A stretch of 46,433 nt of DNA from Candidatus Bathyarchaeota archaeon (GCA_030602965.1 JAUVYS010000002.1:1-46433), one strand, 5' to 3'; shown: positions 54 through 46,433, counted from the first letter of the stretch. A program made the numbers and translations. The notes: generated by a model not told the origin, from the sequence alone.

Positions 54-190
54 AAGCCGACCCAATAACCCAAAGCATAAGCCGACATAATAAACCAAAA
101 CAAACCAACACATAAGACGACAAACAAACTTTAACCGTCCATAATGTTAAGAGCTTCGTTTACATCTTCAATAGCCGACACAATAAATTC
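54..190. repeat. direct copies of an (A/T)AGCCGAC(A) motif; further copies at 1397, 1795, 1822 and inverted at 2521
   Basis: AAGCCGACCCAATAACC at 54, AAGCCGACATAATAAACC at 79, degenerate AAGACGACAAAC at 113, TAGCCGACACAATAAA at 172. Confidence 0.6.
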
Positions 191-313
191 TCTTAAACCC
201 GAGCCTTTTTCAGTAAAAATCTCAGCATTAACCAAACCACTTTTCGCAATTCCCAACCACTTTATTATCTGAGTCTGTTTCCACGCGGGCAACGGGTGAG
301 TTTCAAAAGCCAA
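131..313 (-). CDS. hypothetical protein (60 aa, TTG start)
   Basis: ORF preceded by the GAGAGG SD-like box and the bipartite upstream motif. Confidence 0.55.
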   Translation of the reverse strand: MAFETHPLPAWKQTQIIKWLGIAKSGLVNAEIFTEKGSGLREFIVSAIEDVNEALNIMDG

Positions 314-330
314 CTTAAAAACCTCTCTAA

Positions 331-350
331 CCTATACCTATACGTTTTGC
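331..350 (-). promoter_or_regulatory. bipartite upstream motif GCAAAAC-N7-TATAGG
   Basis: Minus-strand reading: GCAAAACGTATAGGTATAGG. It is followed by GAGAGG and the TTG start at 313. Confidence 0.55.
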
Positions 351-449
351 TTGATTCGGACAATCTTCAGGGATAAACGCTTTAATGTTTAAGCAGTATA
401 TACCACGATTATTTGAGCAACCTTTACAACTCAAAGTTTTTCACCTGTC

Positions 450-743
450 TTATCTTCTCCCTGAATAATGGAGGTTAGCCTGGGGGATCTCCCAAGTTCG
501 AGGTCGTAATCTGTTTATCTCAGCATCAACAAAATAGCCCCAAACTTCAACACTTCCCTGAATGAAACCAAACCATTTTTTCCCCTTAAGAACTCCATCG
601 GGAAATTCATATTCTCCCTCTTCAACTATCTCAACGCCAAACCAAAACCAACCACTAAAAGATTCCCAACCTTTCAAAACCTCTTTGTCGTCTATAAAGA
701 GCTTAGTCTTATCGCCCACTTCCCGACTTTCAAACCGTGCCAT
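450..743 (-). CDS. hypothetical protein (97 aa)
   Basis: ATG start with GGTGAG SD 5 nt upstream, plus the upstream motif. Confidence 0.7.
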   Translation of the reverse strand: MARFESREVGDKTKLFIDDKEVLKGWESFSGWFWFGVEIVEEGEYEFPDGVLKGKKWFGFIQGSVEVWGYFVDAEINRLRPRTWEIPQANLHYSGRR

Positions 744-756
744 ATTCTCACCTTAA

Positions 757-776
757 CCTATACTGGAAGGTTTTGC
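757..776 (-). promoter_or_regulatory. bipartite upstream motif GCAAAAC-N7-TATAGG
   Basis: Minus-strand reading: GCAAAACCTTCCAGTATAGG, then TTAAGGTGAGAATATG. The motif abuts the TAA stop of the upstream gene. Confidence 0.6.
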
Positions 777-1160
777 TTAGATCTTTTCTACGTCTTGACC
801 TAAAAGTTTCGCAAAGGCTTCGGCTGTTTGGTGGTCGTTTACTCCTTCAAGAGTCTTAAAAGCTATCTCTCGCGCTTCGCTAATACTGTATTTGATAGCT
901 CTACCGATTACCTCAGTTAAGGCATTATGAAGAGCGGTCTTTTTCTGTTCCTCTTTTGACATCTCAAAGTCTTTCTGAAGTATGCGGTACTTCAAATATT
1001 CCCGATTATGACGAATCAAGGGTTCAAGAGATTCAATAACCAACTGAATGTTTAATTCATATTTCTTACTTTCTTCATACCTCTTCCTCTCATGCTCGTT
1101 GATAAAATCCTGTTCTTCTTCGGTGTAACTCATTTCAATCAACCTCTTCATTTTCATCAT
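777..1160 (-). CDS. hypothetical protein (127 aa, helical and charged)
   Basis: Long ORF on the dominant strand, overlapping the upstream gene end. Confidence 0.7.
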   Translation of the reverse strand: MMKMKRLIEMSYTEEEQDFINEHERKRYEESKKYELNIQLVIESLEPLIRHNREYLKYRILQKDFEMSKEEQKKTALHNALTEVIGRAIKYSISEAREIAFKTLEGVNDHQTAEAFAKLLGQDVEKI

Positions 1161-1353
1161 CCCAAATAATGTAATCTACTCTACTGAATGGCATAAATAT
1201 TTTATTTCCATTCTCAAGAATAGCTTTTACATATAACTGTTGAAAAATCGTGTGTGCGGTGATTTGAATCTGTGCATGGCTATCTATAGTATCAGTCACT
1301 AATCTACCTGACCCCTCTTTATTTGACATGTTTTCACGAAAATATTTATTCAT
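1135..1353 (-). CDS. hypothetical protein (72 aa from the ATG at 1353; track start 1368 is TTG)
   Basis: The ATG at 1353 lies 9 nt after GAGGTC and downstream of the motif. Confidence 0.6.
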   Translation of the reverse strand: MNKYFRENMSNKEGSGRLVTDTIDSHAQIQITAHTIFQQLYVKAILENGNKIFMPFSRVDYIIWDDENEEVD

Positions 1354-1368
1354 ATTTCTTGACCTCAA

Positions 1369-1388
1369 TCTATAAACTGAGGTTTTGC
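1369..1388 (-). promoter_or_regulatory. bipartite upstream motif GCAAAAC-N7-TATAGA
   Basis: Minus-strand reading: GCAAAACCTCAGTTTATAGA, then TTGAGGTCAAGAAATATG. Confidence 0.6.
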
Positions 1389-1495
1389 GTTAACATTAGC
1401 CGACAAAAAAAAGATATATGAAATATACGCAAAAATGGATCCGAAAAGATGATAAATGAATCGTACATCAAAGACAAAAAAAAAGAGGGAGGCAG

Positions 1496-2476
1496 TTAAG
1501 CCTTTATCAAGTCGCTGAGTTTCTTCAGCTTTCCAGACTTCACCCGTTCCTTAAGCCAACCAAGACCTTTATCAACCGCTTCTTTTTTGTCGTCTATCAA
1601 TAAGCAAGCTCCTGAGATCGTGCTTAGTTTCTGTTTAGTGTGGTCTGTCTGTCCCTTCGGAGTCTTCCTGAACTCTCCATGTCCAGCGATCCAACTGGAA
1701 GCCATAGCCAAACCCCAAAGCGTCTTCGGTTCATCTTTGAAACGATCAAAAACCGTCTTGATTGTCTTCTTACCTAACCCATAGCTTAAGCCCATAGCCG
1801 ACATAATAACCCTCATTTCTTTAGCCGACACACTAACTTTTCTCGATTGTTTTACACGGTTAAATACGCTGTGCTGATTGTCTTCTGCTCGTTTGATTGC
1901 TTCTTTCAATCTCGGTTCAAGTTCTCGAAGGCGTTCAATCCTTAACACCCGTTCAAAGTTTCCAGTGTTCAATCCGAACCTTTGAAGCCCTGACACATTC
2001 AACCAGGAGAGAGGATTAAAACACAACTCTACACGAATGAAAGATCCTATTCTTATGGCGTTTCGTGTGGTGATAGTTCCCCCGTTGATCTGGAAGCCCA
2101 CCTTCAAACCTGCAACTTCTCTGATAAAATCTACTTTCCCGTACATCCCTTCAACATCCAACAAAGGAACGCCTATGATCTTCTCTGCTGTTTGATACAC
2201 AACTTCGGGAGGGATCAACAAATGCTTCTGTGTGGCTACTGCCCTAACTTTCCCGTCTATTACGATAAACTGCAAAGGCTTCGAGTTAGGCGTGTGGTTT
2301 TCATCAAAGAACCCTAAACCCTTCCTTTTAATCTCTGCATCTATCTTACGCCCATGCACAAGTCTAAGATAAGACCATTTCGCACGTTTCCTCCAAACTG
2401 GAAGATCCGCCTGTGTGCCGTCTTCTAACTCTACAACACTCGGAGATTGTAAAGTTCCAACTAAAATCTGCTCCAT
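1496..2476 (-). CDS. hypothetical protein (326 aa), possibly DUF932-like phage/plasmid protein
   Basis: Long ORF. The segment GFQINGGTITTRNAIRIGSFIRVELCFNPL recalls the DUF932 core pattern (recalled from memory, not searched). Confidence 0.6.
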   Translation of the reverse strand: MEQILVGTLQSPSVVELEDGTQADLPVWRKRAKWSYLRLVHGRKIDAEIKRKGLGFFDENHTPNSKPLQFIVIDGKVRAVATQKHLLIPPEVVYQTAEKIIGVPLLDVEGMYGKVDFIREVAGLKVGFQINGGTITTRNAIRIGSFIRVELCFNPLSWLNVSGLQRFGLNTGNFERVLRIERLRELEPRLKEAIKRAEDNQHSVFNRVKQSRKVSVSAKEMRVIMSAMGLSYGLGKKTIKTVFDRFKDEPKTLWGLAMASSWIAGHGEFRKTPKGQTDHTKQKLSTISGACLLIDDKKEAVDKGLGWLKERVKSGKLKKLSDLIKA

Positions 2477-2490
2477 TATTTCACTCTCAC

Positions 2491-2510
2491 CCTATAAGTA
2501 AGGATTTTGC
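2491..2510 (-). promoter_or_regulatory. bipartite upstream motif GCAAAAT-N7-TATAGG
   Basis: Minus-strand reading: GCAAAATCCTTACTTATAGG, then GTGAGAGTGAAATAATG. The motif abuts the TAG stop of the upstream gene. Confidence 0.6.
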
Positions 2511-2807
2511 CTAATTTGTTTGTCGGCTTCTGTTTTTCCATCTCTTATGTATTTCTTTTCGAGTATGCTCAATGCAAAGCCTCCATATATCGCATAAACT
2601 CCCTTTAGAGACAATTTCTTGTTTTTGACATTTTTTACAAGCAATTATGAATCCACTTTTCATATCCTTGAGTACCCCACCCGTTTCAAGAATAACTATT
2701 CCACCTTTATTTTCATAGATTTCTTCAACAAGAAAGAAACTTTTTCCCTTCTCTTCATGGATCTTCATTAATTCTTTCTTTTCCAAAAAATTTTCTACGT
2801 AAGCCAT
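2511..2807 (-). CDS. hypothetical protein with a CxxC pair (98 aa from MAYVENF)
   Basis: The ATG at 2807 overlaps the upstream stop (TAATG coupling). The track start at 2837 would overlap the upstream ORF. Confidence 0.6.
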   Translation of the reverse strand: MAYVENFLEKKELMKIHEEKGKSFFLVEEIYENKGGIVILETGGVLKDMKSGFIIACKKCQKQEIVSKGSLCDIWRLCIEHTRKEIHKRWKNRSRQTN

Positions 2808-2977
2808 TATTTCGCTTCTCCTTCTTTCTCCATACATTCTTTACATATCGGGTAAGATTCCCCGTGACCTTGACAATGAAACCAGTCCTTATCTTCAACC
2901 ATATCAGAAGTCAAGTCTTTACCACAATTAAAACAGTCACCCCAAACCTGTAAGAGTTTATCTATGTCGTCTATCAT
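2807..2977 (-). CDS. zinc-finger mini-protein (56 aa, MIDDIDKLLQVWGDCFNCGK...CKEC), absent from the ORF track
   Basis: ATGA overlap with the upstream gene and TAATG overlap with the downstream gene. Two CxxC pairs. Paralog of 3156..3350 (shared IDDIDKLL). Confidence 0.6.
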   Translation of the reverse strand: MIDDIDKLLQVWGDCFNCGKDLTSDMVEDKDWFHCQGHGESYPICKECMEKEGEAK

Positions 2978-3159
2978 TTCTCAACTTTCCCGTCTAATCT
3001 GAAGCTCCTACATTTCAATACATCTTTAAGGTATTGACGATTAGGCTGTTCTATTGAATGTTGTTCAATCTCTAAATAGTACCCGTATTTCATCTGACAG
3101 TTTCGACATCTCTCTGAAGAAAAACCACTATTCCAAACATGACCGCTTGCTTCTATCAT
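2974..3159 (-). CDS. zinc-binding mini-protein (61 aa)
   Basis: Contains a CxxC motif and is coupled to both neighbours by 4-nt overlaps. Confidence 0.6.
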   Translation of the reverse strand: MIEASGHVWNSGFSSERCRNCQMKYGYYLEIEQHSIEQPNRQYLKDVLKCRSFRLDGKVEK

Positions 3160-3350
3160 TTCGCTTCCTCAAAACAATCTGGACATAATCGATTATAATG
3201 AAGAGGTAAATCATTTCTTCCACATTTTTTACAGGGAACATTCAAAATATCCTCCTTCAAGAGTTTATCTATGTCGTCTATAATCTTAGCTCTCTCAACA
3301 TAACCGTCAAGAGTCTTTCCCTTGAAGAGATCCTTAAGTTTCTCGTTCAT
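3156..3350 (-). CDS. zinc-ribbon mini-protein (64 aa)
   Basis: CKKCG...CPDC motifs. Shares a 23-nt identical stretch with 2807..2977. Confidence 0.65.
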   Translation of the reverse strand: MNEKLKDLFKGKTLDGYVERAKIIDDIDKLLKEDILNVPCKKCGRNDLPLHYNRLCPDCFEEAK

Positions 3351-3590
3351 CTTTATTCCTCATACGTCTTATTTTTCCTTTGTACCGATAAGAACGTGGA
3401 CATCTTTTCATAGTCTAGTCCTCAATCTAAGCAGGTCTTTGAATTCTCCTTATTTCGTATCCCCAAGACTTTTCAAGCAAGAGATATTTACCTTTGAAGT
3501 GTTCCCGTTTCTGTATGGTTTCAAAAAGATCCTTTAATAAACCAATAGCGTTCAATCATTCTCCCTCAATAAAGAAAAGGAGGGTTTTGC

Positions 3591-4016
3591 TTATCCTTGT
3601 TTATAGATCCATTGTTTAAGACGACATAGATACTGTTTGTCTTGCAGTTGTAAGATTGCTTCATGGTCTTCTATAAAATCAGAGTTGTCTGGATAGAATC
3701 GTTTCAATAGATGAAAATAGATTCTTGTCCACATACGATCTAAGGGAGCATCCATACTTGCTGTTGCGATATACGTTAATGCTTCATAATCGGTGGCTTC
3801 CGTTATTTTCTCCCCTTTACTATTCTTGATTTGTTTTAATCGTTCCATTTGGATTCGAGTCTTTTGTTCCTCAGTTATCATAGCTGACCATCCTCTATGA
3901 CCAATGATAGTTCTCGGCTTCGAGAGAAGTTCAGCTAACATATCAAATATCCGTAAACCTTGTTCTCTCTGTTTAACTGTGCCTTCACCGAAAAGCAGTT
4001 TTTGTTCTTTCGTCAT
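3591..4016 (-). CDS. hypothetical protein (141 aa)
   Basis: ORF with the upstream motif. Its stop is directly followed by GCAAAAC. Confidence 0.65.
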   Translation of the reverse strand: MTKEQKLLFGEGTVKQREQGLRIFDMLAELLSKPRTIIGHRGWSAMITEEQKTRIQMERLKQIKNSKGEKITEATDYEALTYIATASMDAPLDRMWTRIYFHLLKRFYPDNSDFIEDHEAILQLQDKQYLCRLKQWIYKQG

Positions 4017-4026
4017 GGTATCTCAA

Positions 4027-4046
4027 TCTTTACTCTGTCGTTTTGC
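4027..4046 (-). promoter_or_regulatory. bipartite upstream motif (GCAAAAC-N7-TAAAGA variant)
   Basis: Minus-strand reading: GCAAAACGACAGAGTAAAGA, then TTGAGATACCATG. Confidence 0.5.
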
Positions 4047-4142
4047 TTAGAAAATTCTAAAGCTCCGCATAAAGCATCATTGCTTAAACTATTCAAGTAA
4101 CCAAGAAGGAGTCTTCTTCGGCATTAGTACCATCATCACCCC

Positions 4143-4586
4143 CTAAAAGAAGTTAGATAGAGATTTTTGATCTCCTTGTTGTCCAAATAATTCTCTAGTT
4201 TTCTTCTTGAATATTTTAATCAAAGCGTTATTGATCTCTATTGGAATATTGACTATGACTTCCCCTTCACAATTTAAACAATTAGTGAGATAAGCGGTTC
4301 GGTCTTTTTCAGGATCAAAACAGAAACTATTCGAGTTGTATGTATCACATATTGGACATTTAACATTAGTCCATGCTATTTGTGTTGAGAGGATTCCAAA
4401 ATTCTCATCTTTAAACTCTATACAGGGTGTTACTTTTCCCTTCCCATCCATAAACACAACTTCTTCTGTCGTCTTCTCTTCTATTGAGGGTTTCCAGTCT
4501 TCCCGTACTTTATCAAAGGTTTCTCCAAGAGTAGCCATTTCCATTTGACGCGCAAGTTCAATAGCATCATCAGCCGGTTGGCGCAA
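4143..4586 (-). CDS. zinc-ribbon protein (147 aa; start uncertain, TTG at 4586 or an internal ATG)
   Basis: CPICD...CLNCEG motifs on the dominant strand. Confidence 0.6.
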   Translation of the reverse strand: MRQPADDAIELARQMEMATLGETFDKVREDWKPSIEEKTTEEVVFMDGKGKVTPCIEFKDENFGILSTQIAWTNVKCPICDTYNSNSFCFDPEKDRTAYLTNCLNCEGEVIVNIPIEINNALIKIFKKKTRELFGQQGDQKSLSNFF

Positions 4587-8510: not shown

Positions 8511-9026
8511 CTAAAGAATGATGCTCATAGTTTCCATTGTTCTCGGTAAAACTACCCACGCGCTTAACCATGCATTTACATGTGGTTTCACTGGATCTGC
8601 TTCTGACACAATTTCAAAACTGAAAGTATCTTTAAAAATGGGTTGAGGATACATAGCAGCCGTTTTTTCTTCTTTTAATGCTACAAACTTGGTGAACCAA
8701 TCGGAAAGATATCTGATGAAACAGCCTTCATACCACTTCATAGAAACAAAATCCACGTCTGTACTGAACATGCCGACAGGATAAAACACTACATTACTCT
8801 TTAAAGTTACACAGTGTTCCCCTACAGGCATTTCATAAGTAGGCCAACCGAAATGAACAGGTTGAAAACCTACAACTGACATACGAATTCTCTGTTCTTC
8901 TTCAATCTTAGCTGCTTCTGCTATTGCATCTTCATATCTACTTAACGCACGAACATTATTATTCATGAAATTCTGAAGAAGATTTTTAGTGCTTAATTCC
9001 TCAGTTTCAGGATATAAAAAAACCAT
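8511..9026 (-). CDS. hypothetical protein with an MVFLYP N-terminus; paralog of 26422..26970
   Basis: Shares RYxDA..EAA.I..E.RI+M....PVH.G.P and the C-terminal VLPRTM motif with 26422..26970. Confidence 0.7.
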   Translation of the reverse strand: MVFLYPETEELSTKNLLQNFMNNNVRALSRYEDAIAEAAKIEEEQRIRMSVVGFQPVHFGWPTYEMPVGEHCVTLKSNVVFYPVGMFSTDVDFVSMKWYEGCFIRYLSDWFTKFVALKEEKTAAMYPQPIFKDTFSFEIVSEADPVKPHVNAWLSAWVVLPRTMETMSIIL

Positions 9027-9937: not shown

Positions 9938-10176
9938 CCACCTCGAACGTAATTTTTACATGAAGATGCTATGAGTTTTAGTAAATCTTCTTTGAATTGA
10001 CTAAACTTTGATTCTTCAATGACTTTACTGAGTGATGGAGCAAGAGACAAAAAAGTAGGATTTTCTGCTATCTGATAATTCGCCTTCTCTAAGATAGAGC
10101 AGCCTCGATTGCAATTACGACAACTTTCTAACATTATATCACCTCCCTTAAGCCTCGATGAATCTATTGAATTCAT
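9934..10176 (-). CDS. Cys-containing hypothetical protein (80 aa)
   Basis: CRNCNRGC motif and a 4-nt overlap with the downstream gene. Confidence 0.55.
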   Translation of the reverse strand: MNSIDSSRLKGGDIMLESCRNCNRGCSILEKANYQIAENPTFLSLAPSLSKVIEESKFSQFKEDLLKLIASSCKNYVRGG

Positions 10177-10402
10177 TCCACATTTCTAGCGCTGTATCGC
10201 CTTTTGTTGTAGTCACAATTTTTTTCCTTTTTTTCTCCTTGACTTCTATACGTAATAATCCTCTTTCCTCTAGGTCTTTAATATACCGCTTAACCTTGGG
10301 AAAGCTTACGCGCGCTCCAAAATACAGATTAGTTACTCCACAACCGCTATGTGCTAGCTCTAACATCAACATTTGAATCTCAATTTTGCTACGACGACGC
10401 AT
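10148..10402 (-). CDS. winged-helix DNA-binding protein
   Basis: KIEIQMLMLELAHSGCGVTNLYFGARVSFPKVKRYIKDLEERGLLRIE fits a wHTH layout. GGAGG SD is present. Confidence 0.65.
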   Translation of the reverse strand: MRRRSKIEIQMLMLELAHSGCGVTNLYFGARVSFPKVKRYIKDLEERGLLRIEVKEKKRKKIVTTTKGDTALEMWNEFNRFIEA

Positions 10403-13196: not shown

Positions 13197-13733
13197 GTGG
13201 CTGGTTTGGATAAAGATAAGATTTCGTTGGCTAAACTGTTTCGATCCAAAAAAAAATTGAATACTCCCCTGCAACGGGCATTATACAAACCGTCACTAAT
13301 AGAATTATTAACAGCGGAACCGGAAGAGGACGGGGTGATCGTGGAGGATGTTGCAGTCGTCCTTAAACCTTATGGAAAAACTAAAAGTATGATAGCACGC
13401 GTTTTTCCTTTGATTGAAATCCAAAAATTTAAGCCGTTGATCGACAGAAAAAAAATAACTGGATTAAAAATAACAGTGAAGGATGGTGCGTTAGCATGTT
13501 TAGTCGCTTCGGGCTGTGGAACTGTAAGTCAAATAACAGGTTTTTTACGCGCAGTCTCAGTACATTACCCTGAATTTAAAGATGTGAAAACCGAGACGGT
13601 TGGCCAGGCTCTCAGCAGATTAGTTGCAGGCAGAATCATTCAACCTTCTTCAGATTATGTGTCTGGAGAAAAAGTGCAATGCTTATCAGTGCCTAAACAA
13701 AAAGAATTATTATACAGAGAACGATGGTGGTAA
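13197..13733 (+). CDS. putative DNA-binding protein with two winged-helix-like segments (178 aa, GTG start)
   Basis: LIELLTAEPEEDGVIVEDVAVVL and TVSQITGFLR...TVGQALSRLVAGRII segments. Confidence 0.5.
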   Translation: MAGLDKDKISLAKLFRSKKKLNTPLQRALYKPSLIELLTAEPEEDGVIVEDVAVVLKPYGKTKSMIARVFPLIEIQKFKPLIDRKKITGLKITVKDGALACLVASGCGTVSQITGFLRAVSVHYPEFKDVKTETVGQALSRLVAGRIIQPSSDYVSGEKVQCLSVPKQKELLYRERWW

Positions 13734-13734
13734 C

Positions 13735-15243
13735 GTGCCACTGACAAAAGAACAGTTAAGATTGATTTGGGATCGTTGGAGAACAAAGTATCCCTGGGAT
13801 GTTCTTAAACGTACTTTTCCTTTTCCTCAAAACCTTATTTCATTATATGATTGGTGGACAGGAATCTTACATTCAAGAGGAGTAGACATTGACGAATATG
13901 ATTTTGAAGCTTATCTTGATCCAACTTTAACAAGAAAAGAACATGAACAACTCCTTGAAACATTGATTACTGCTCCTCCAGGAGAAGAAATGTATGAAGC
14001 ATGGGCGCAAGAAGCCATAAATAAAATACAGGATGAAGCTAGAGAAGCCGGATTATTAGAACCGTACGAAAAAAAAATTAGAAGTCTTGAACGAACAGAA
14101 AAAAAATCCAAACGAAAATATGAGAAAGCGAAAGAATTAGAAGATGAATTACGAAGAGAACTCCGAGAAAAAGAGGGTGAGGTTGAACGATTAAAACTAA
14201 CTAAAAAAGTCACTGTGAAATTCACACGTGACTATCCTAGTTTTGTCGGGTATGATTTAGAAACTTATGGTCCCTTCAAAACAGGTGAATTAACAAGTCT
14301 TCCAGAAGCAAACGCCGCCATCTTAATTGAACAAAAAGTGGCTTCTATTTGGGGTATACCTAAAATTGAAAAAGTTTTACCGGTAATGCCTCCAAGAGAA
14401 TTGACAAAAGAAGAGAAAAAGAGGCTTCAAGACGTTTTTAACGCTGCTCTTTTTGATGGTTTAGGCCGGATACCTGCAAGCACTATTTCTAAGTTCAGGG
14501 TTGAACTCGAAAAAATTAAGGATCTGTCTTATGTTGAAGCAGAGAAACGTATTTTAGAGTTAGCACAAGAAATTGTTGGAATGATTATAGCCACTAAAAA
14601 AATTGTGCCTGCCAGACCGCCTAGAAAAGTTGAAGTTTATCGTCCACCACGAGAAGAAGATGAACTCTACGCTATGCCTCATGTTTCACCTGCCGAACCT
14701 CCTGAATGGCCGTTAGAACCGCCTGTAATGAAGTTTCCACGAAGCCCCTCAAGTCGAGAGGAACAAGCATTTTGGAAAGCTTTTCAGTATAAACTTCAAA
14801 CGCAGGGATTTAATCCTTGGGAGTGGCAACGAGAATTTAACAATTATATTTCTAAGATGCAGTTCCGTAGCTGGAAAGCTCTTGTTAAAGCCTACGAATT
14901 GTTTGTTGAAACCATTAAGGAAAAGAAAGAGCTTCCACCGTTATGGCAGTGGAGCGGGGTTCCACCTCCAAGCTTAAACTATTTGCCAAAAGAATTAGAA
15001 AAGAAAAGAGCAGGAGCCATAATTCACTACACATCAGTATTGATTAGAAACGCTAGACGTGCGCGTGAACCTTATCAACCAACCTTAGAAGAACTGAGAG
15101 AGGATCTCGGTGATATTATGGGTATAACTAATGTAACATTTGATGAAATAAAAACTGCTTTAATGGAAGCTTACAAAGAAAAAGACGTAAGACTAATAGG
15201 GATTACACTGGAAGAGTTAAACAATTTTCTGGAAGCAACCTAA
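13735..15243 (+). CDS. large hypothetical protein (about 502 aa; E/K coiled-coil plus Pro-rich segments)
   Basis: The GTG at 13735 follows GGTGG and the upstream stop. Track start 13624 or the ATG at 13657 are alternatives. Confidence 0.65.
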   Translation: MPLTKEQLRLIWDRWRTKYPWDVLKRTFPFPQNLISLYDWWTGILHSRGVDIDEYDFEAYLDPTLTRKEHEQLLETLITAPPGEEMYEAWAQEAINKIQDEAREAGLLEPYEKKIRSLERTEKKSKRKYEKAKELEDELRRELREKEGEVERLKLTKKVTVKFTRDYPSFVGYDLETYGPFKTGELTSLPEANAAILIEQKVASIWGIPKIEKVLPVMPPRELTKEEKKRLQDVFNAALFDGLGRIPASTISKFRVELEKIKDLSYVEAEKRILELAQEIVGMIIATKKIVPARPPRKVEVYRPPREEDELYAMPHVSPAEPPEWPLEPPVMKFPRSPSSREEQAFWKAFQYKLQTQGFNPWEWQREFNNYISKMQFRSWKALVKAYELFVETIKEKKELPPLWQWSGVPPPSLNYLPKELEKKRAGAIIHYTSVLIRNARRAREPYQPTLEELREDLGDIMGITNVTFDEIKTALMEAYKEKDVRLIGITLEELNNFLEAT

Positions 15244-26421: not shown

Positions 26422-26970
26422 TTAGACGTAGATTTTGGATTCAGCCATTGTTCGTGGCAATACTATGAAGGCTAACAGCCATCCAGGTGCAGGGCTTGAT
26501 GTAGAATGCACATAAAACCTGAAGGTTTCTCCGCCTTTGAAAACGTAATGGTCTAGATTGCCTTTGTATGCGCCTTGTCGTTCTAGGAAGAAGCATACTG
26601 GCCCAGTGAACCATTCACCGATCCAATCTATTCCACCACCACTCCACCATCGCATATAGTCAAAGTCCATTGTTGGCAAACCGAAACTGTCATCAACACC
26701 CCAATTCATTATTCCCCAAGGGAAAAATGCAGTGTTCTGCAGCAATGTTTTCTGTGTGTTTCCTTGCGGTAGATTATATGCTAATGCAGTTGGTAAAGGT
26801 AATCCGAGATGAACAGGTTTATGGCTTTCGATACGCATTTTAATGCGTTCACGATCGGCGATAGCAGCAGCTTCTAGTTTAGCATCTCTATATCTCATAG
26901 ACATTATCGTATAAAATTCATCTCTTGAAGTAGGAGTAAAAACTGGTCCTTGAATTATCGCGACCATCAT
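26422..26970 (-). CDS. hypothetical protein, paralog of 8511..9026 (182 aa)
   Basis: Shared internal motifs and the C-terminal VLPRTM motif. Confidence 0.7.
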   Translation of the reverse strand: MMVAIIQGPVFTPTSRDEFYTIMSMRYRDAKLEAAAIADRERIKMRIESHKPVHLGLPLPTALAYNLPQGNTQKTLLQNTAFFPWGIMNWGVDDSFGLPTMDFDYMRWWSGGGIDWIGEWFTGPVCFFLERQGAYKGNLDHYVFKGGETFRFYVHSTSSPAPGWLLAFIVLPRTMAESKIYV

Positions 26971-42544: not shown

Positions 42545-42614
42545 TTATAAGGTGTAAGTTATAAGGTGCAAGGTATACGTGATAAGGTATCAGGTGTAAG
42601 GTATACGTGATAAC
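42545..42614 (+). repeat. five tandem 14-bp iterons (centromere/operator-like) abutting the parA start
   Basis: TTATAAGGTGTAAG, TTATAAGGTGCAAG, GTATACGTGATAAG, GTATCAGGTGTAAG, GTATACGTGATAAC. Confidence 0.75.
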
Positions 42615-43362
42615 TATAGCTGTTACTAACCAGAAAGGAGGAACAGGAAAAACGACGTGTTCAGTGAATTTGGCTGCTGCCCTTGCCTTAGCAGGAAAAA
42701 AAACTTTGCTTTTAGACCTTGATCCTCAAAGCCACTCAACAATCAGCCTTGGAATTGAAAAGAATAGTTTTACCGCGTCAATGTATGATGTTTTGATTGG
42801 GAATATAAGTTTACCTTCAACTCTCTTAAAGACTGAGATTAACGGATTGTTTGTTGGACCTGCTGACATAAATTTAGCTGGAGTCGAATTTGAATTTGTT
42901 ACACGGCCTAACAGAGAAAACGTTTTGAAGAATGTTCTAACAAAAATTATTGATATTGACGTTTGTATCTTGGACACTCCGCCAAACTTGGGACTGTTAA
43001 CAATCAACAGTTTATGTGCATCTGATTATTTGATAATTCCCATAAGTGTGGGTTTCCTTCCCCTTGAAGGACTTAAACGATTACTGGACGTGGTTGAATT
43101 AGTGAAGGAGAGACTAGGCGCAAAAACGAAACTTTTAGGAACTGTCATAACGTTCTATGATGAAAGAACCAGACTGAGTAAAGAAAGCACTGAGGAGATC
43201 CAGAGGTTCTTCAAAGAAAAATGCTTTAAAACTGTGATTCATAGATGCGTGAAAATCGCGGAGGCTCCATCTCACGGAGAAACAATCTTCACTTACGCTT
43301 CAAAAAGTCGATCAGCCAAAGAATTTAAAGAATTAGGAAAAGAGGTATTGAAATATGTCTAA
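42607..43362 (+). CDS. parA: ParA/Soj-family partition ATPase (GTG start)
   Basis: ITIAVTNQKGGTGKTT deviant Walker A, LLLDLDPQ, and ILDTPP Walker B-like motif. Confidence 0.9.
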   Translation: MITIAVTNQKGGTGKTTCSVNLAAALALAGKKTLLLDLDPQSHSTISLGIEKNSFTASMYDVLIGNISLPSTLLKTEINGLFVGPADINLAGVEFEFVTRPNRENVLKNVLTKIIDIDVCILDTPPNLGLLTINSLCASDYLIIPISVGFLPLEGLKRLLDVVELVKERLGAKTKLLGTVITFYDERTRLSKESTEEIQRFFKEKCFKTVIHRCVKIAEAPSHGETIFTYASKSRSAKEFKELGKEVLKYV

Positions 43363-44958: not shown

Positions 44959-45168
44959 TTACTTTTCTGTGTCGTCTAGTTTCTTTTCTTTGGATAAAAT
45001 TAGATATACTACTGAGGCATAATCACGTAATGTTAAGGGCGTGACTGTTGGATGTCGAGAGAATGCTTCATTAAAAATGATGGGTATTGTAACTTCTGAT
45101 TTTATATCGCGCGCCCATTCAAGTAATGCCATTATACGTTCTTTTCTTATGTCAGCATAAGTAGGCAT
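44959..45168 (-). CDS. hypothetical protein (69 aa)
   Basis: ORF downstream of the RHH gene. Confidence 0.5.
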   Translation of the reverse strand: MPTYADIRKERIMALLEWARDIKSEVTIPIIFNEAFSRHPTVTPLTLRDYASVVYLILSKEKKLDDTEK

Positions 45169-45191: not shown

Positions 45192-45362
45192 CTACTCCAC
45201 TCCTACAATTTCTCCTTGTTGTCTAGCCTGGAGATCTTCTAGTAATAGACGCATACCTGCTCGGATCGCTTCGGTTCTAGTTGCATAAGAGTCTTTTATT
45301 GCTTCATCAAATGATTCTACAAATTTTATAGGCAAAGTAATATGTATTTTCTTTCCATTCAT
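45192..45362 (-). CDS. ribbon-helix-helix (CopG-family) DNA-binding protein, 56 aa, absent from the ORF track
   Basis: MNGKKIHITLPIKFVESFDEAIKDSYATRTEAIRAGMRLLLEDL. GAGGT SD is present. Confidence 0.7.
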   Translation of the reverse strand: MNGKKIHITLPIKFVESFDEAIKDSYATRTEAIRAGMRLLLEDLQARQQGEIVGVE

Positions 45363-45374
45363 ATCATTACCTCT

Positions 45375-45401
45375 TTTTATGTATACTTTTATGTATATAA
45401 A
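45375..45401 (-). promoter_or_regulatory. TATA box (TTTATATA) overlapping two tandem 11-12-nt repeats; likely RHH promoter/operator
   Basis: TTTTATGTATA at 45375-45385 and 45387-45397. On the minus strand, TTTATATA lies 31 nt upstream of the ATG at 45362. Confidence 0.5.
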
Positions 45402-45409
45402 AAGTTTTT

Positions 45410-45509
45410 GATAGAGAAAGAGAATAAGAGAGGAAAAGACAGAGAAGGAGAGATAGGGAGAGAGAGGGAGAAGGAGAGAGAGAGGGAGAAGGAGAGAACA
45501 GAGAAAAAT
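45410..45509. repeat. polypurine/polypyrimidine (GA-rich) tract of about 100 nt with an 18-nt tandem repeat
   Basis: Pure purine run at 45455-45498. GAGGGAGAAGGAGAGA occurs twice with period 18. Confidence 0.85.
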
Positions 45510-45560
45510 ATAAATACTTATTTTATTACCCTAAGATCAAGCGCGTTTAGAAGTACGTAG

Positions 45561-46433
45561 ATCTGGGATATACGCCTATCTTCTAATCCAAGGACAGCTT
45601 GTTTTTCTCAGATCTACTGTACCGTTTTTTAAGTAATATTTAAAAAGGATCTCCTTTAGTACCTATTTCTTGGATTAGAAAATAGGTAATTGTGCTAACC
45701 GTTAGGAATAGAGAAACTTCCAACACGGTTGTCGATCAAGTAATTGATCAGTGATAACTTGCGGAATGAAACTCTGAGAAATAAATCAATTAGCGGGAAA
45801 CACCTTCTAGGGGCCTATGGATGGGCGACGGAGGCTGCCAACCTACTTTCGTTCTATATAAATGGGATGGGAAAACTGGTATATGAGAAGCTCAATGTTT
45901 CTGATTGACAGATCCAGGAACTACCGACCAACGGCAAGATTTGATACTAGCTGTCCCACACTGTGTAGAAGAAGGATAGAGGTTTAAGCTTACTTTCTGA
46001 TTCCCTGATAAGCCTGTACCCATGTCGATATGGGAAGAGGTGTTTATCAAGTGAAGCCTGGGATACGTGACATGTGTCTCCGCGATTTCGGTGACGGATC
46101 GGTGATAATAAGTCCATTGATGAAGTTCAATGATGTGGGCTTGTTGCTGGGAGGAAAGGGCTGAGATAGACGAGGGTGGGTGTATTCCCTAGTGTTAAGT
46201 CTAAATCATATATTACTTAAAACACAAAACATAAAAAAATTATGTTAGTATGTGTTTGGAGAATTCCAGTGGAAATGGAGGTTGGGGGTTTGGTATTTAA
46301 ATGTTTTGTTTGTTTGGGTAGGATCTACCCGGTAGGTTTGTACCCTACACAGCCCTTCCTGTCTAGGACGTTGAGGGGTTCGGTGTAAGTCTGGGTTTGG
46401 GTTTGGTAGGAGTTCTCAAAGACGGGCTTTGTG
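45561..46433. other. 870-nt ORF-free, GC-richer, inverted-repeat-containing region (candidate origin and/or large ncRNA)
   Basis: No ORF of 60 aa or more in any frame. 18/19-bp inverted repeat at 45575-45593 / 45669-45686. GATCAA-GTAA-TTGATC hairpin at 45733-45748. G/T-rich 3' end. Confidence 0.5.

Follow-up and report, generated by a model that had tools for sequence, protein, structure and literature searches.

What is the function of the last 873 nt of an archaeal contig that otherwise consists almost entirely of genes? The window, by which we mean the whole stretch of DNA analysed here (46,433 nt), is the complete contig C100 of a 1.44-Mb archaeal bin (180 contigs, 73.5% complete), and a GTDB relative of this contig sits in a Bathyarchaeia MAG. 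The region in question, 45561-46433, forms the right end of the contig. A sequence-only reading had offered three explanations for it, namely a replication origin, a large structured non-coding RNA and flanking host sequence. As described below, the region is genuine non-coding DNA, and replication or control DNA is a likelier description of it than a structured RNA or flanking host sequence.

The gene content of the window agrees with an uncharacterised, virus- or plasmid-like element of about 46 kb from a Bathyarchaeia archaeon. Protein family searches assigned a ParA gene (42607-43362), glycosyltransferases, methyltransferases, an ABC transporter, a papain-like peptidase and an HNH nuclease, and a 539-aa protein was found by Pfam to carry an archaeal Gins51_C domain; the majority of the ORFs had no family in the Pfam and PHROG searches. 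In the 74 ORFs of the window, Pfam detected no family of capsid, integrase, PolB, Rep or Orc1/Cdc6 proteins. The two Cdc6_C matches of the bin lie on contigs C14 and C174, not on the element. No CRISPR-spacer-like match was found between the window and the remainder of the bin.

The hallmark of the element family is a 326-aa protein encoded at 1496-2476 on the - strand. BLASTP found 61 homologues of this protein with 36-54% identity; the contigs that carry them reach 73 kb, and many measure 40-50 kb. One of these relatives, G401:C8 (hereafter C8; 71,478 nt), has a hallmark protein 48% identical to that of the window. A Foldseek comparison of the hallmark fold with the PDB gave no match at E up to 0.001, VIA-align returned only weak OB-fold rows (residues 1-86, Z 5-5.8), and the predicted structure of the 171-aa paralogue was poor (pLDDT 51.5). 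In the viral contig collection no relative was found with the hallmark alignment as the query, nor for the 114-aa and 69-aa small proteins near the region. The literature searched contained no description of this element family or of origin recognition boxes (ORBs) on Bathyarchaeia elements.

The absence of ORFs of at least 60 aa in 45561-46433, as claimed in the sequence-only reading, was borne out in all frames, as was the statement that the contig is over 90% coding (90.2% by a greedy ORF cover). The longest stop-free frame in the region, 98 codons on the - strand (45892-46188), has no start codon in its first half. The coding potential was assessed with a codon-position Markov model trained on 43 long ORFs of the window. 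All ten candidate small ORFs inside the region scored negative (-2.2 to -10.5 per 100 nt), and the two small genes just inboard of it scored +8.3 and +4.2. Nine stop-free frames of the region gave nothing when compared with Pfam and PHROGs, the best E values being 0.065 and 0.094. A 72-aa ORF at 45342-45560 is the GA repeat (Table 1) read through, and its coding score is negative. The ORF is thus non-coding, and the gene-free stretch really starts at 45363 and runs to the contig end.

The composition of the region was said to be visibly GC-richer. The GC content is indeed raised, 0.419 as against 0.374 elsewhere, but the difference is modest, since 5.1% of the same-size windows reach 0.419, and it is patchy: 0.345 in 45561-45760, 0.464 in 45761-46180, 0.237 in 46181-46260 and 0.48 in 46261-46433. 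The GC skew of the region is +0.235, a value reached by no other 873-nt window of the contig, and it amounts to +0.35 to +0.39 over the last 470 nt. Strand asymmetry is thus more pronounced than the rise in GC, and a G+T-rich + strand is a better description of this DNA than GC-rich.

Table 1. Features of the right end of the window, from the innermost gene outwards
Feature	Coordinates	Strand	Remarks
56-aa protein gene	45192-45362	-	First gene inboard of the non-coding end; coding score +8.3
TATA-box-like stretch	45385-45400	-	Upstream of the 56-aa gene; putative promoter
Purine-rich (GA) tandem repeat	45413-45506	+	Found with TRF; 18-nt period, about 3.3 copies in the core
Two interleaved inverted repeats	45557-45686		45557-73 with 45601-17; 45575-92 with 45669-86
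Non-coding body	45561-46183		Full element depth; no recognisable signal, no homologue found
Low-depth tail	46184-46433		Contains the AT-rich stretch, the ORB and G+T-rich words
AT-rich stretch	46184-46260		77 nt, 23% GC; adjoins the ORB core; candidate unwinding element
ORB	46264-46288	+	13-nt mini-ORB core TTCCAGTGGAAAT, GGA, then G-run GGTTGGGGG
TTTAAA	46296-46301		7 nt past the G-run; TATA-like, accompanies the ORB in relatives

The signal that can be defined in this DNA lies close to its outer end. The core at 46264-46276 resembles an archaeal ORB, and this assignment was tested by comparison. The core is followed by GGA and the G-run at 46277-46288. A perfect copy of the 11-mer TCCAGTGGAAA occurs once in the whole window, at 46265, and the 11-mer has three copies in the 1.44-Mb bin. 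One of them is located in an AT-rich spacer of contig C14, directly upstream of orc1/cdc6 (Cdc6_C at C14:33664-33942); the third copy, on C160, has no G-run and looks like a chance occurrence. The C14 origin contains a cluster of four ORB-type sites, two of which are oriented towards one another, G-runs inward, with about 135 nt of AT-rich DNA in between. The ORB core of the window and the host oriC ORB at C14:32301 are equal at 12 of 13 positions, and this core is all that an alignment of the host origin with the region has in common. The G-run of the window box is interrupted by TT (GG TT GGGGG), whereas the host boxes read N3-GGGGT.

The box was also compared with characterised ORBs of Pyrococcus. 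A 14-nt stretch at the core reads exactly as the P. furiosus ORB1 oligonucleotide of PMC1904270 does when reverse-complemented. According to that paper, the P. furiosus ORB1-3 and mini-ORB oligonucleotides hold, when reverse-complemented, TTCCAGTGGAAATG followed by a G-run, and the invariant motifs of the ORB are TTCC and GAA. The window core has both of these motifs.

The AT-rich stretch beside the core is among the lowest 1.3% of the 77-nt windows of the contig in GC content. It lies on the core side of the box, unlike the AT-rich DNA of the host origin and of C8, which is on the side of the G-run. A search of 45300-46433 for further ORB sites with up to four mismatches returned only the palindromic overlap of the core with itself. 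The contig ends 145 nt past the box and no partner ORB is present in those 145 nt; a partner may be located further out, past the contig end. The box has no orc1/cdc6 gene as its neighbour, and none was found among the 74 ORFs of the element.

The box recurs in relatives of the element. We searched 83 sequences (547,605 nt) for the core with at most two mismatches, followed by GGGG within 2-9 nt. There were 13 matches, compared with 0-1 in 20 block-shuffles (mean 0.45). The carriers are the window, C8, L011, L034, L043 (with two), L045, L047, L048, L050, L051, L055 and L086, a count that includes the near-identical elements L048 and L050. In 11 of these 12 sequences the box and the hallmark gene are on opposite strands, and a second ORB-like box, inverted and with a G-run of its own, is present in L048 and L086. 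The aligned sites, among which there is one stray 10-nt row, show the core, three bases, GGGG(T) and, after about 7-11 nt, TTTAA[AG] in most rows. The last motif occurs at this distance from the G-run in L045, L047, L048, L055, L086, L011 and C8, and L051 has TATAAG. We have high confidence that the ORB is real and conserved in the element family. A scan of IMG/VR with the ORB-plus-GGGG pattern gave 19 loci, two of them with inverted pairs, a number that may be no more than chance.

Inboard of the box, the most conspicuous features are repeats. The longest inverted repeat pointed out in the sequence-only reading (18/19 bp) exists, with arms of 18 nt at 45575-45592 and 45669-45686 that are complementary at 17 of 18 positions. 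Nowhere in the 46-kb window is there a better inverted repeat within 150 nt, and 3 of the 19 such repeats fall within this 1.9% of the window. The two small hairpins were found as well, CCCAT...ATGGG at 46019-34 as described and GATCAA-GTAA-TTGATC at 45734-45749, one base off the position that had been assigned to it. Both are chance-sized, since by simple arithmetic about one stem of 5-6 bp is expected per 873 nt. The repeat reported near the contig end is present in the form of GGGTTTGGTA, which occurs twice, at 46286-95 and 46399-408. TGTCGKCT, a motif specific to the element, has no exact copy in 45561-46433; its nearest exact copy is at 44970, and a site with one mismatch is found at 46134. 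A 16-nt inverted repeat of 94% identity (45624-39 with 46210-25) brackets the GC-rich core. A MITE-like insertion at 45624-46225 was considered and rejected, as the flanks show no target duplication and neither the bin nor the relatives contain another copy.

Several of the innermost features have counterparts in C8. The 56-aa protein looks like a ribbon-helix-helix protein by eye, with no match in Pfam or PHROGs, and a small gene in similar placement in C8 (2954-3169) has the same look. A near-identical TATA-like 16-mer is present in C8 at 284-299, in the same position, after a pyrimidine-rich tandem repeat (130-290) that corresponds to the GA repeat in place and strand. The GA repeat and the strongest inverted repeats adjoin genes for what would be small DNA-binding proteins, and ParA is encoded 2-3 kb away. 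Most simply, the repeats of the inner part (45363-46183) would be operator or partition sites, and the GA repeat in particular may serve the neighbouring small DNA-binding proteins and ParA in this way.

What, then, would the ORB do? The outer part of the region (46184-46301) brings together a host-type ORB with its G-run, the adjacent AT-rich stretch and a TATA-like element. Since the element has no orc1/cdc6 of its own, the box most likely binds Orc1/Cdc6 of the host. Such binding would start the replication of the element, in which case the site would be an origin, possibly cut by the contig end; alternatively, it would couple a promoter to the initiator of the host. The binding of Orc1, the function as an origin and the parts played by the repeats are what we infer from the sequence, and we put the chances at about even that the ORB with its surroundings acts as a replication origin or as an Orc1-dependent control site. 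The origin proposed in the sequence-only reading thus stands in part: a canonical ORB, an AT-rich neighbour, a match with the host and recurrence in relatives speak for it, but there is a single ORB and no orc1/cdc6. It is also in favour of an origin that no initiator gene or other origin candidate was found on the element, that a GINS-domain protein is encoded, that the box equals the host origin boxes and that two relatives have an inverted second box. Against an origin are the solitary ORB in the window, the interrupted G-run, the position of the AT-rich DNA on the core side, unlike in the host origin and C8, and the remaining 620 nt, which have neither an assigned signal nor conservation. 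Published binding data bear on the first of these points. According to PMC1904270, Cdc6 is not stably retained in vivo by a solitary 13-nt mini-ORB (Pyrococcus ChIP) and scattered mini-ORBs are without Cdc6 binding in vivo, whereas a single long ORB binds well in vitro.

In five relatives, the arrangement of the box resembles an operator, in that it has a TATA-like element on one side and the beginning of a winged-helix gene on the other. In L045, L047, L048, L051 and L086 the box is 1-20 nt upstream of the start codon of a gene for an HTH_45-type winged-helix protein, and TTTAA[AG], or TATAAG in L051, lies beyond the G-run. The ORB of the window could accordingly be a relic, an Orc1-controlled promoter operator whose gene has been lost here, with the rest of the region being fast-evolving spacer that has no specific function. 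The window has a homologue of the winged-helix gene at 10148-10402, without a box. Moreover, a run of seven T on the - strand within about 30 nt after the box would stop a transcript early, and nothing else in the region is conserved. This explanation, however, leaves the element without an origin, which it needs and for which neither another candidate nor an initiator gene was found. It also has to account for the identity of the box with the host origin boxes, the G-run included, and for the two relatives with inverted pairs, as at origins. We consider it rather unlikely. It is worth noting that at chromosomal origins the ORBs overlap the orc1 promoter too, and the roles of origin and operator are therefore not exclusive. 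A large structured non-coding RNA would fit the lack of coding potential and the G+U-rich + strand, and the minimum free energy of the whole region is below that of its shuffles, with z-scores of -3.4 (+) and -2.75 (-) from 20 shuffles per strand. Local folding, however, is near background. The 200-nt windows of the region have mean z-scores of about -1.5 (+) and -1.4 (-), within about one unit of the contig background (15 windows; mean -0.66, sd 1.45, on + and -0.20, sd 1.01, on -), so that the description of the region as structured is weakly supported overall. Rfam gave no match at the gathering threshold across the whole window, and the best rows of a permissive scan (E 5.2-7.4) are far under the gathering scores and at chance level. 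The collections searched held no homologous DNA that could lend support by covariation. An RNA gene of this kind is, in our opinion, very improbable.

The explanation as flanking host sequence was likewise not supported. ARAGORN found no tRNA, no integrase was present, and an att-like direct repeat between the contig ends was not found. Within its own bin, the region has no second copy outside C100 (blastn, tblastx), and comparison with 40 relatives, including a genome of the same genus, and with 400 genomes of the class gave only chance or low-complexity matches of 25-32 nt. No similar DNA was found in the phage and plasmid collections or in 87 loci compared with the region. The last 250 nt nevertheless require separate consideration. 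The sequence is present in one public run only, X1, a marine sediment sample that is probably the source; runs X2-X20 contain 0.05 of the sequence words, a share for which the GA repeat is suspected to account, and X2 yielded no contig on the region. No RNA run was among those containing the sequence, and X21 and X22, two RNA runs from the same sample or study, yielded no contig on it either, which carries no information on its expression. In X1, a Logan contig of 11,217 nt with a depth of 13.2 stops at 46183. A 180-nt contig with a depth of 2.5 spans 46220-46399, and 46184-46219 and 46400-46433 are uncovered. The tail (GC skew +0.35, G+T 0.62), including the ORB, thus has an about five-fold lower depth (2.5 vs 13.2), and these are depths of contigs and not of reads, compatible with a decaying end, a minor variant or a chimera alike. 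Because the ORB is within the low-depth tail, its linkage to the remaining contig is less secure. The break in depth would be expected if the last 250 nt were a host flank, an integration junction or an assembly chimera. Apart from the absence of tRNA, integrase, att-like repeat and host match, this is opposed by the words that the tail has in common with the left end and by the ORB-TTTAAA composite typical of the element family. The presence of the composite in the window argues that the low-depth tail belongs to this element family. A foreign origin of the tail appears improbable to us; the tail may instead be chimeric with DNA of another, less abundant element of this family.

The depth decay toward the right end would also be expected if the region were the terminal non-coding DNA, or telomere region, of a linear genome, serving the replication or protection of the end. 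The positions of the contig ends in the family bear on this possibility. We examined the window, C8 and 19 metagenome contigs, 21 contigs of at least 15 kb in all. The hallmark gene has its 3' end 13-1839 nt from a contig end, which is always on its 3' side, in 17 of them, and five contigs cluster at 39.8-40.9 kb. C8 has the same two-end layout. Its hallmark gene is at one end, and the other end carries ParA, the small downstream gene, small DNA-binding-type genes, the pyrimidine-rich tandem repeat and the TATA-like 16-mer, a layout equal to that of the right end of the window read on the - strand. Beyond the tandem repeat there are about 130 nt in C8 and about 930 nt in the window, with no nucleotide similarity. 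The two termini of the window resemble each other in their words and skew. In the number of shared 6- and 7-mers, the terminal 130-nt stretches, read outwards, exceed every one of 2000 random segments, and the skews of the termini are mirrored (+0.35 at the right, -0.43 at the left). The outward terminal 130 nt are G+T-rich in 11 of 15 relatives. Set against these observations, no inverted or direct terminal repeat was found in the window or C8, the best alignment of the window ends being 20 nt and at chance level, and no terminal-protein, PolB or protelomerase family was found. Homopolymer runs are typical assembly breaks, and the left end of the window starts at a homopolymer of 17 A. Among near-identical relatives the position of the ends varies by 30-500 nt, 4 of the 19 metagenome contigs have the hallmark gene in their interior, and many of these contigs are from one sample series and are thus not independent. 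A linear end is, in our view, possible but doubtful.

To our knowledge, almost nothing is known about the replication of mobile elements of Bathyarchaeia, which are abundant in sediments and uncultured. An element that has no initiator and carries a copy of the host origin box (12 of 13 positions) offers a concrete and testable handle on this question. Since the box must match the host initiator, it also provides a sequence-based route for linking such elements to their hosts. What had been described as an ORF-free, structured end is now a defined 25-nt signal and an unexplained spacer. Going further, we tentatively picture a family of initiator-less Bathyarchaeia elements of about 40-70 kb, each of which would keep one, sometimes two, exact host-type ORBs and capture Orc1/Cdc6 and MCM of the host, helped by its own GINS-domain protein. 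In the element studied here, the ORB would then mark an origin that adjoins the partition module and lies where the genome ends or is joined, and this end would be a combined replication-segregation control region. We would not give this picture more than a minor share of the probability.

The right end of the window can be compared with three kinds of known system. Among linear archaeal viruses, the lipothrixvirus AFV1 has short direct repeats near its genome ends. Genomes of Rudiviridae have hairpins at their ends, together with inverted terminal repeats of up to 2 kb, according to PMC5062984. Unlike in Rudiviridae, no inverted terminal repeat was found here, and no Adnaviria capsid or Rep family was detected in the element. 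The apparently fixed position of the end in the family, the non-coding terminal DNA and the G+T-rich outward strand are nevertheless like the termini of linear archaeal viruses. ORBs have been looked for in an archaeal virus before: an Aeropyrum virus was checked for them and none were found, as a preprint (10.1101/2021.04.21.440749) reports.

Lone ORBs at promoters are the second kind of system. Like these, the element has one box only, which keeps a fixed spacing to a TATA-like element; in the relatives the box is directly upstream of a gene. Unlike these, the box of the window is not followed by a gene, it is extrachromosomal, and there is no other origin candidate on the element. The third comparison is with the Orc1/Cdc6-dependent chromosomal origins, such as Pyrococcus oriC and Sulfolobus oriC1. 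The element differs from them in having one box on a mobile element, no inverted partner within the contig and no orc1/cdc6, and in having the AT-rich DNA on the other side of the box. In common with them it has the TTCC/GAA core, the G-run and AT-rich DNA beside the box, and its box is of the same type as the boxes of the C14 origin of its own host.

The 326-aa hallmark protein encoded near the left end of the window (Table below) marks an element family that has so far not been described. A total of 61 homologues were counted for this protein, and no match to it was found in Pfam or PHROG. The AlphaFold model of the protein was confident (pLDDT 88.5), and in this model residues 1-86 alone showed a weak likeness to OB-fold ssDNA-binding domains (Z 5-5.8). 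In 17 of the 21 long contigs, no more than 2 kb separates the hallmark gene from a contig end.

The 8-mer TGTCGKCT usually follows a T-rich stretch. The window has 15 copies of it where 1.4 would be expected, and 13 of these copies lie within the left 4.5 kb (80-4474). In the relatives, the motif is stacked two to four times in the final 100-300 nt of the hallmark-side ends. This grouping at contig ends looks iteron-like. The window itself starts with a C followed by 17 A (1-18), which is likely to be an assembly break. The left end of the window is therefore probably not a physical terminus.

Features of the element, its relatives and the host bin
Feature	Location	Strand	Remarks
Hallmark protein, 326 aa	window 1496-2476	-	also at 80 loci
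Paralogous protein, 171 aa	window 8511-9026	-	
Protein with Gins51_C domain, 539 aa	window 13624-15243	+	E 3.7e-15
Paralogous protein, 182 aa	window 26422-26970	-	
TGTCGKCT copy outside the left part	window 44970		
TGTCGKCT clusters in relatives	ends of L023, L026, L034, L057; G401:C8 71213-71443		
tRNA-Met gene	G401:C8 4682-4758		L091
HTH_45 winged-helix gene beside ORB core	L045:7446-7703		also L047, L048, L051, L086
Chromosomal replication origin of host bin	C14:32100-32775		AT-rich spacer, four ORB-type boxes

The 539-aa protein, whose counterpart in the related 71-kb contig C8 is 30% identical, is predicted from its domain to be a GINS-like part of the replisome encoded by the element. 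The two paralogous proteins share 35% identity and are conserved in at least eight relatives; they gave no family match, and the structure model of the 171-aa protein was too poor for use (pLDDT 51.5). In C8, the tRNA-Met gene lies directly behind the ParA/small-gene pair. No tRNA was found anywhere in the window.

In five relatives, the HTH_45 gene starts only 1-20 nt from the core of the origin recognition box (ORB), and the initiator box and the leader of this gene therefore overlap. The origin spacer of the host lies directly upstream of orc1/cdc6, and two of its four boxes are opposed, with their G-runs pointing inward. In the IMG/VR viral contigs L107 and L109, exact ORB-plus-GGGG boxes form an origin-like pair, with one box on each strand and a distance of 347 nt between them.
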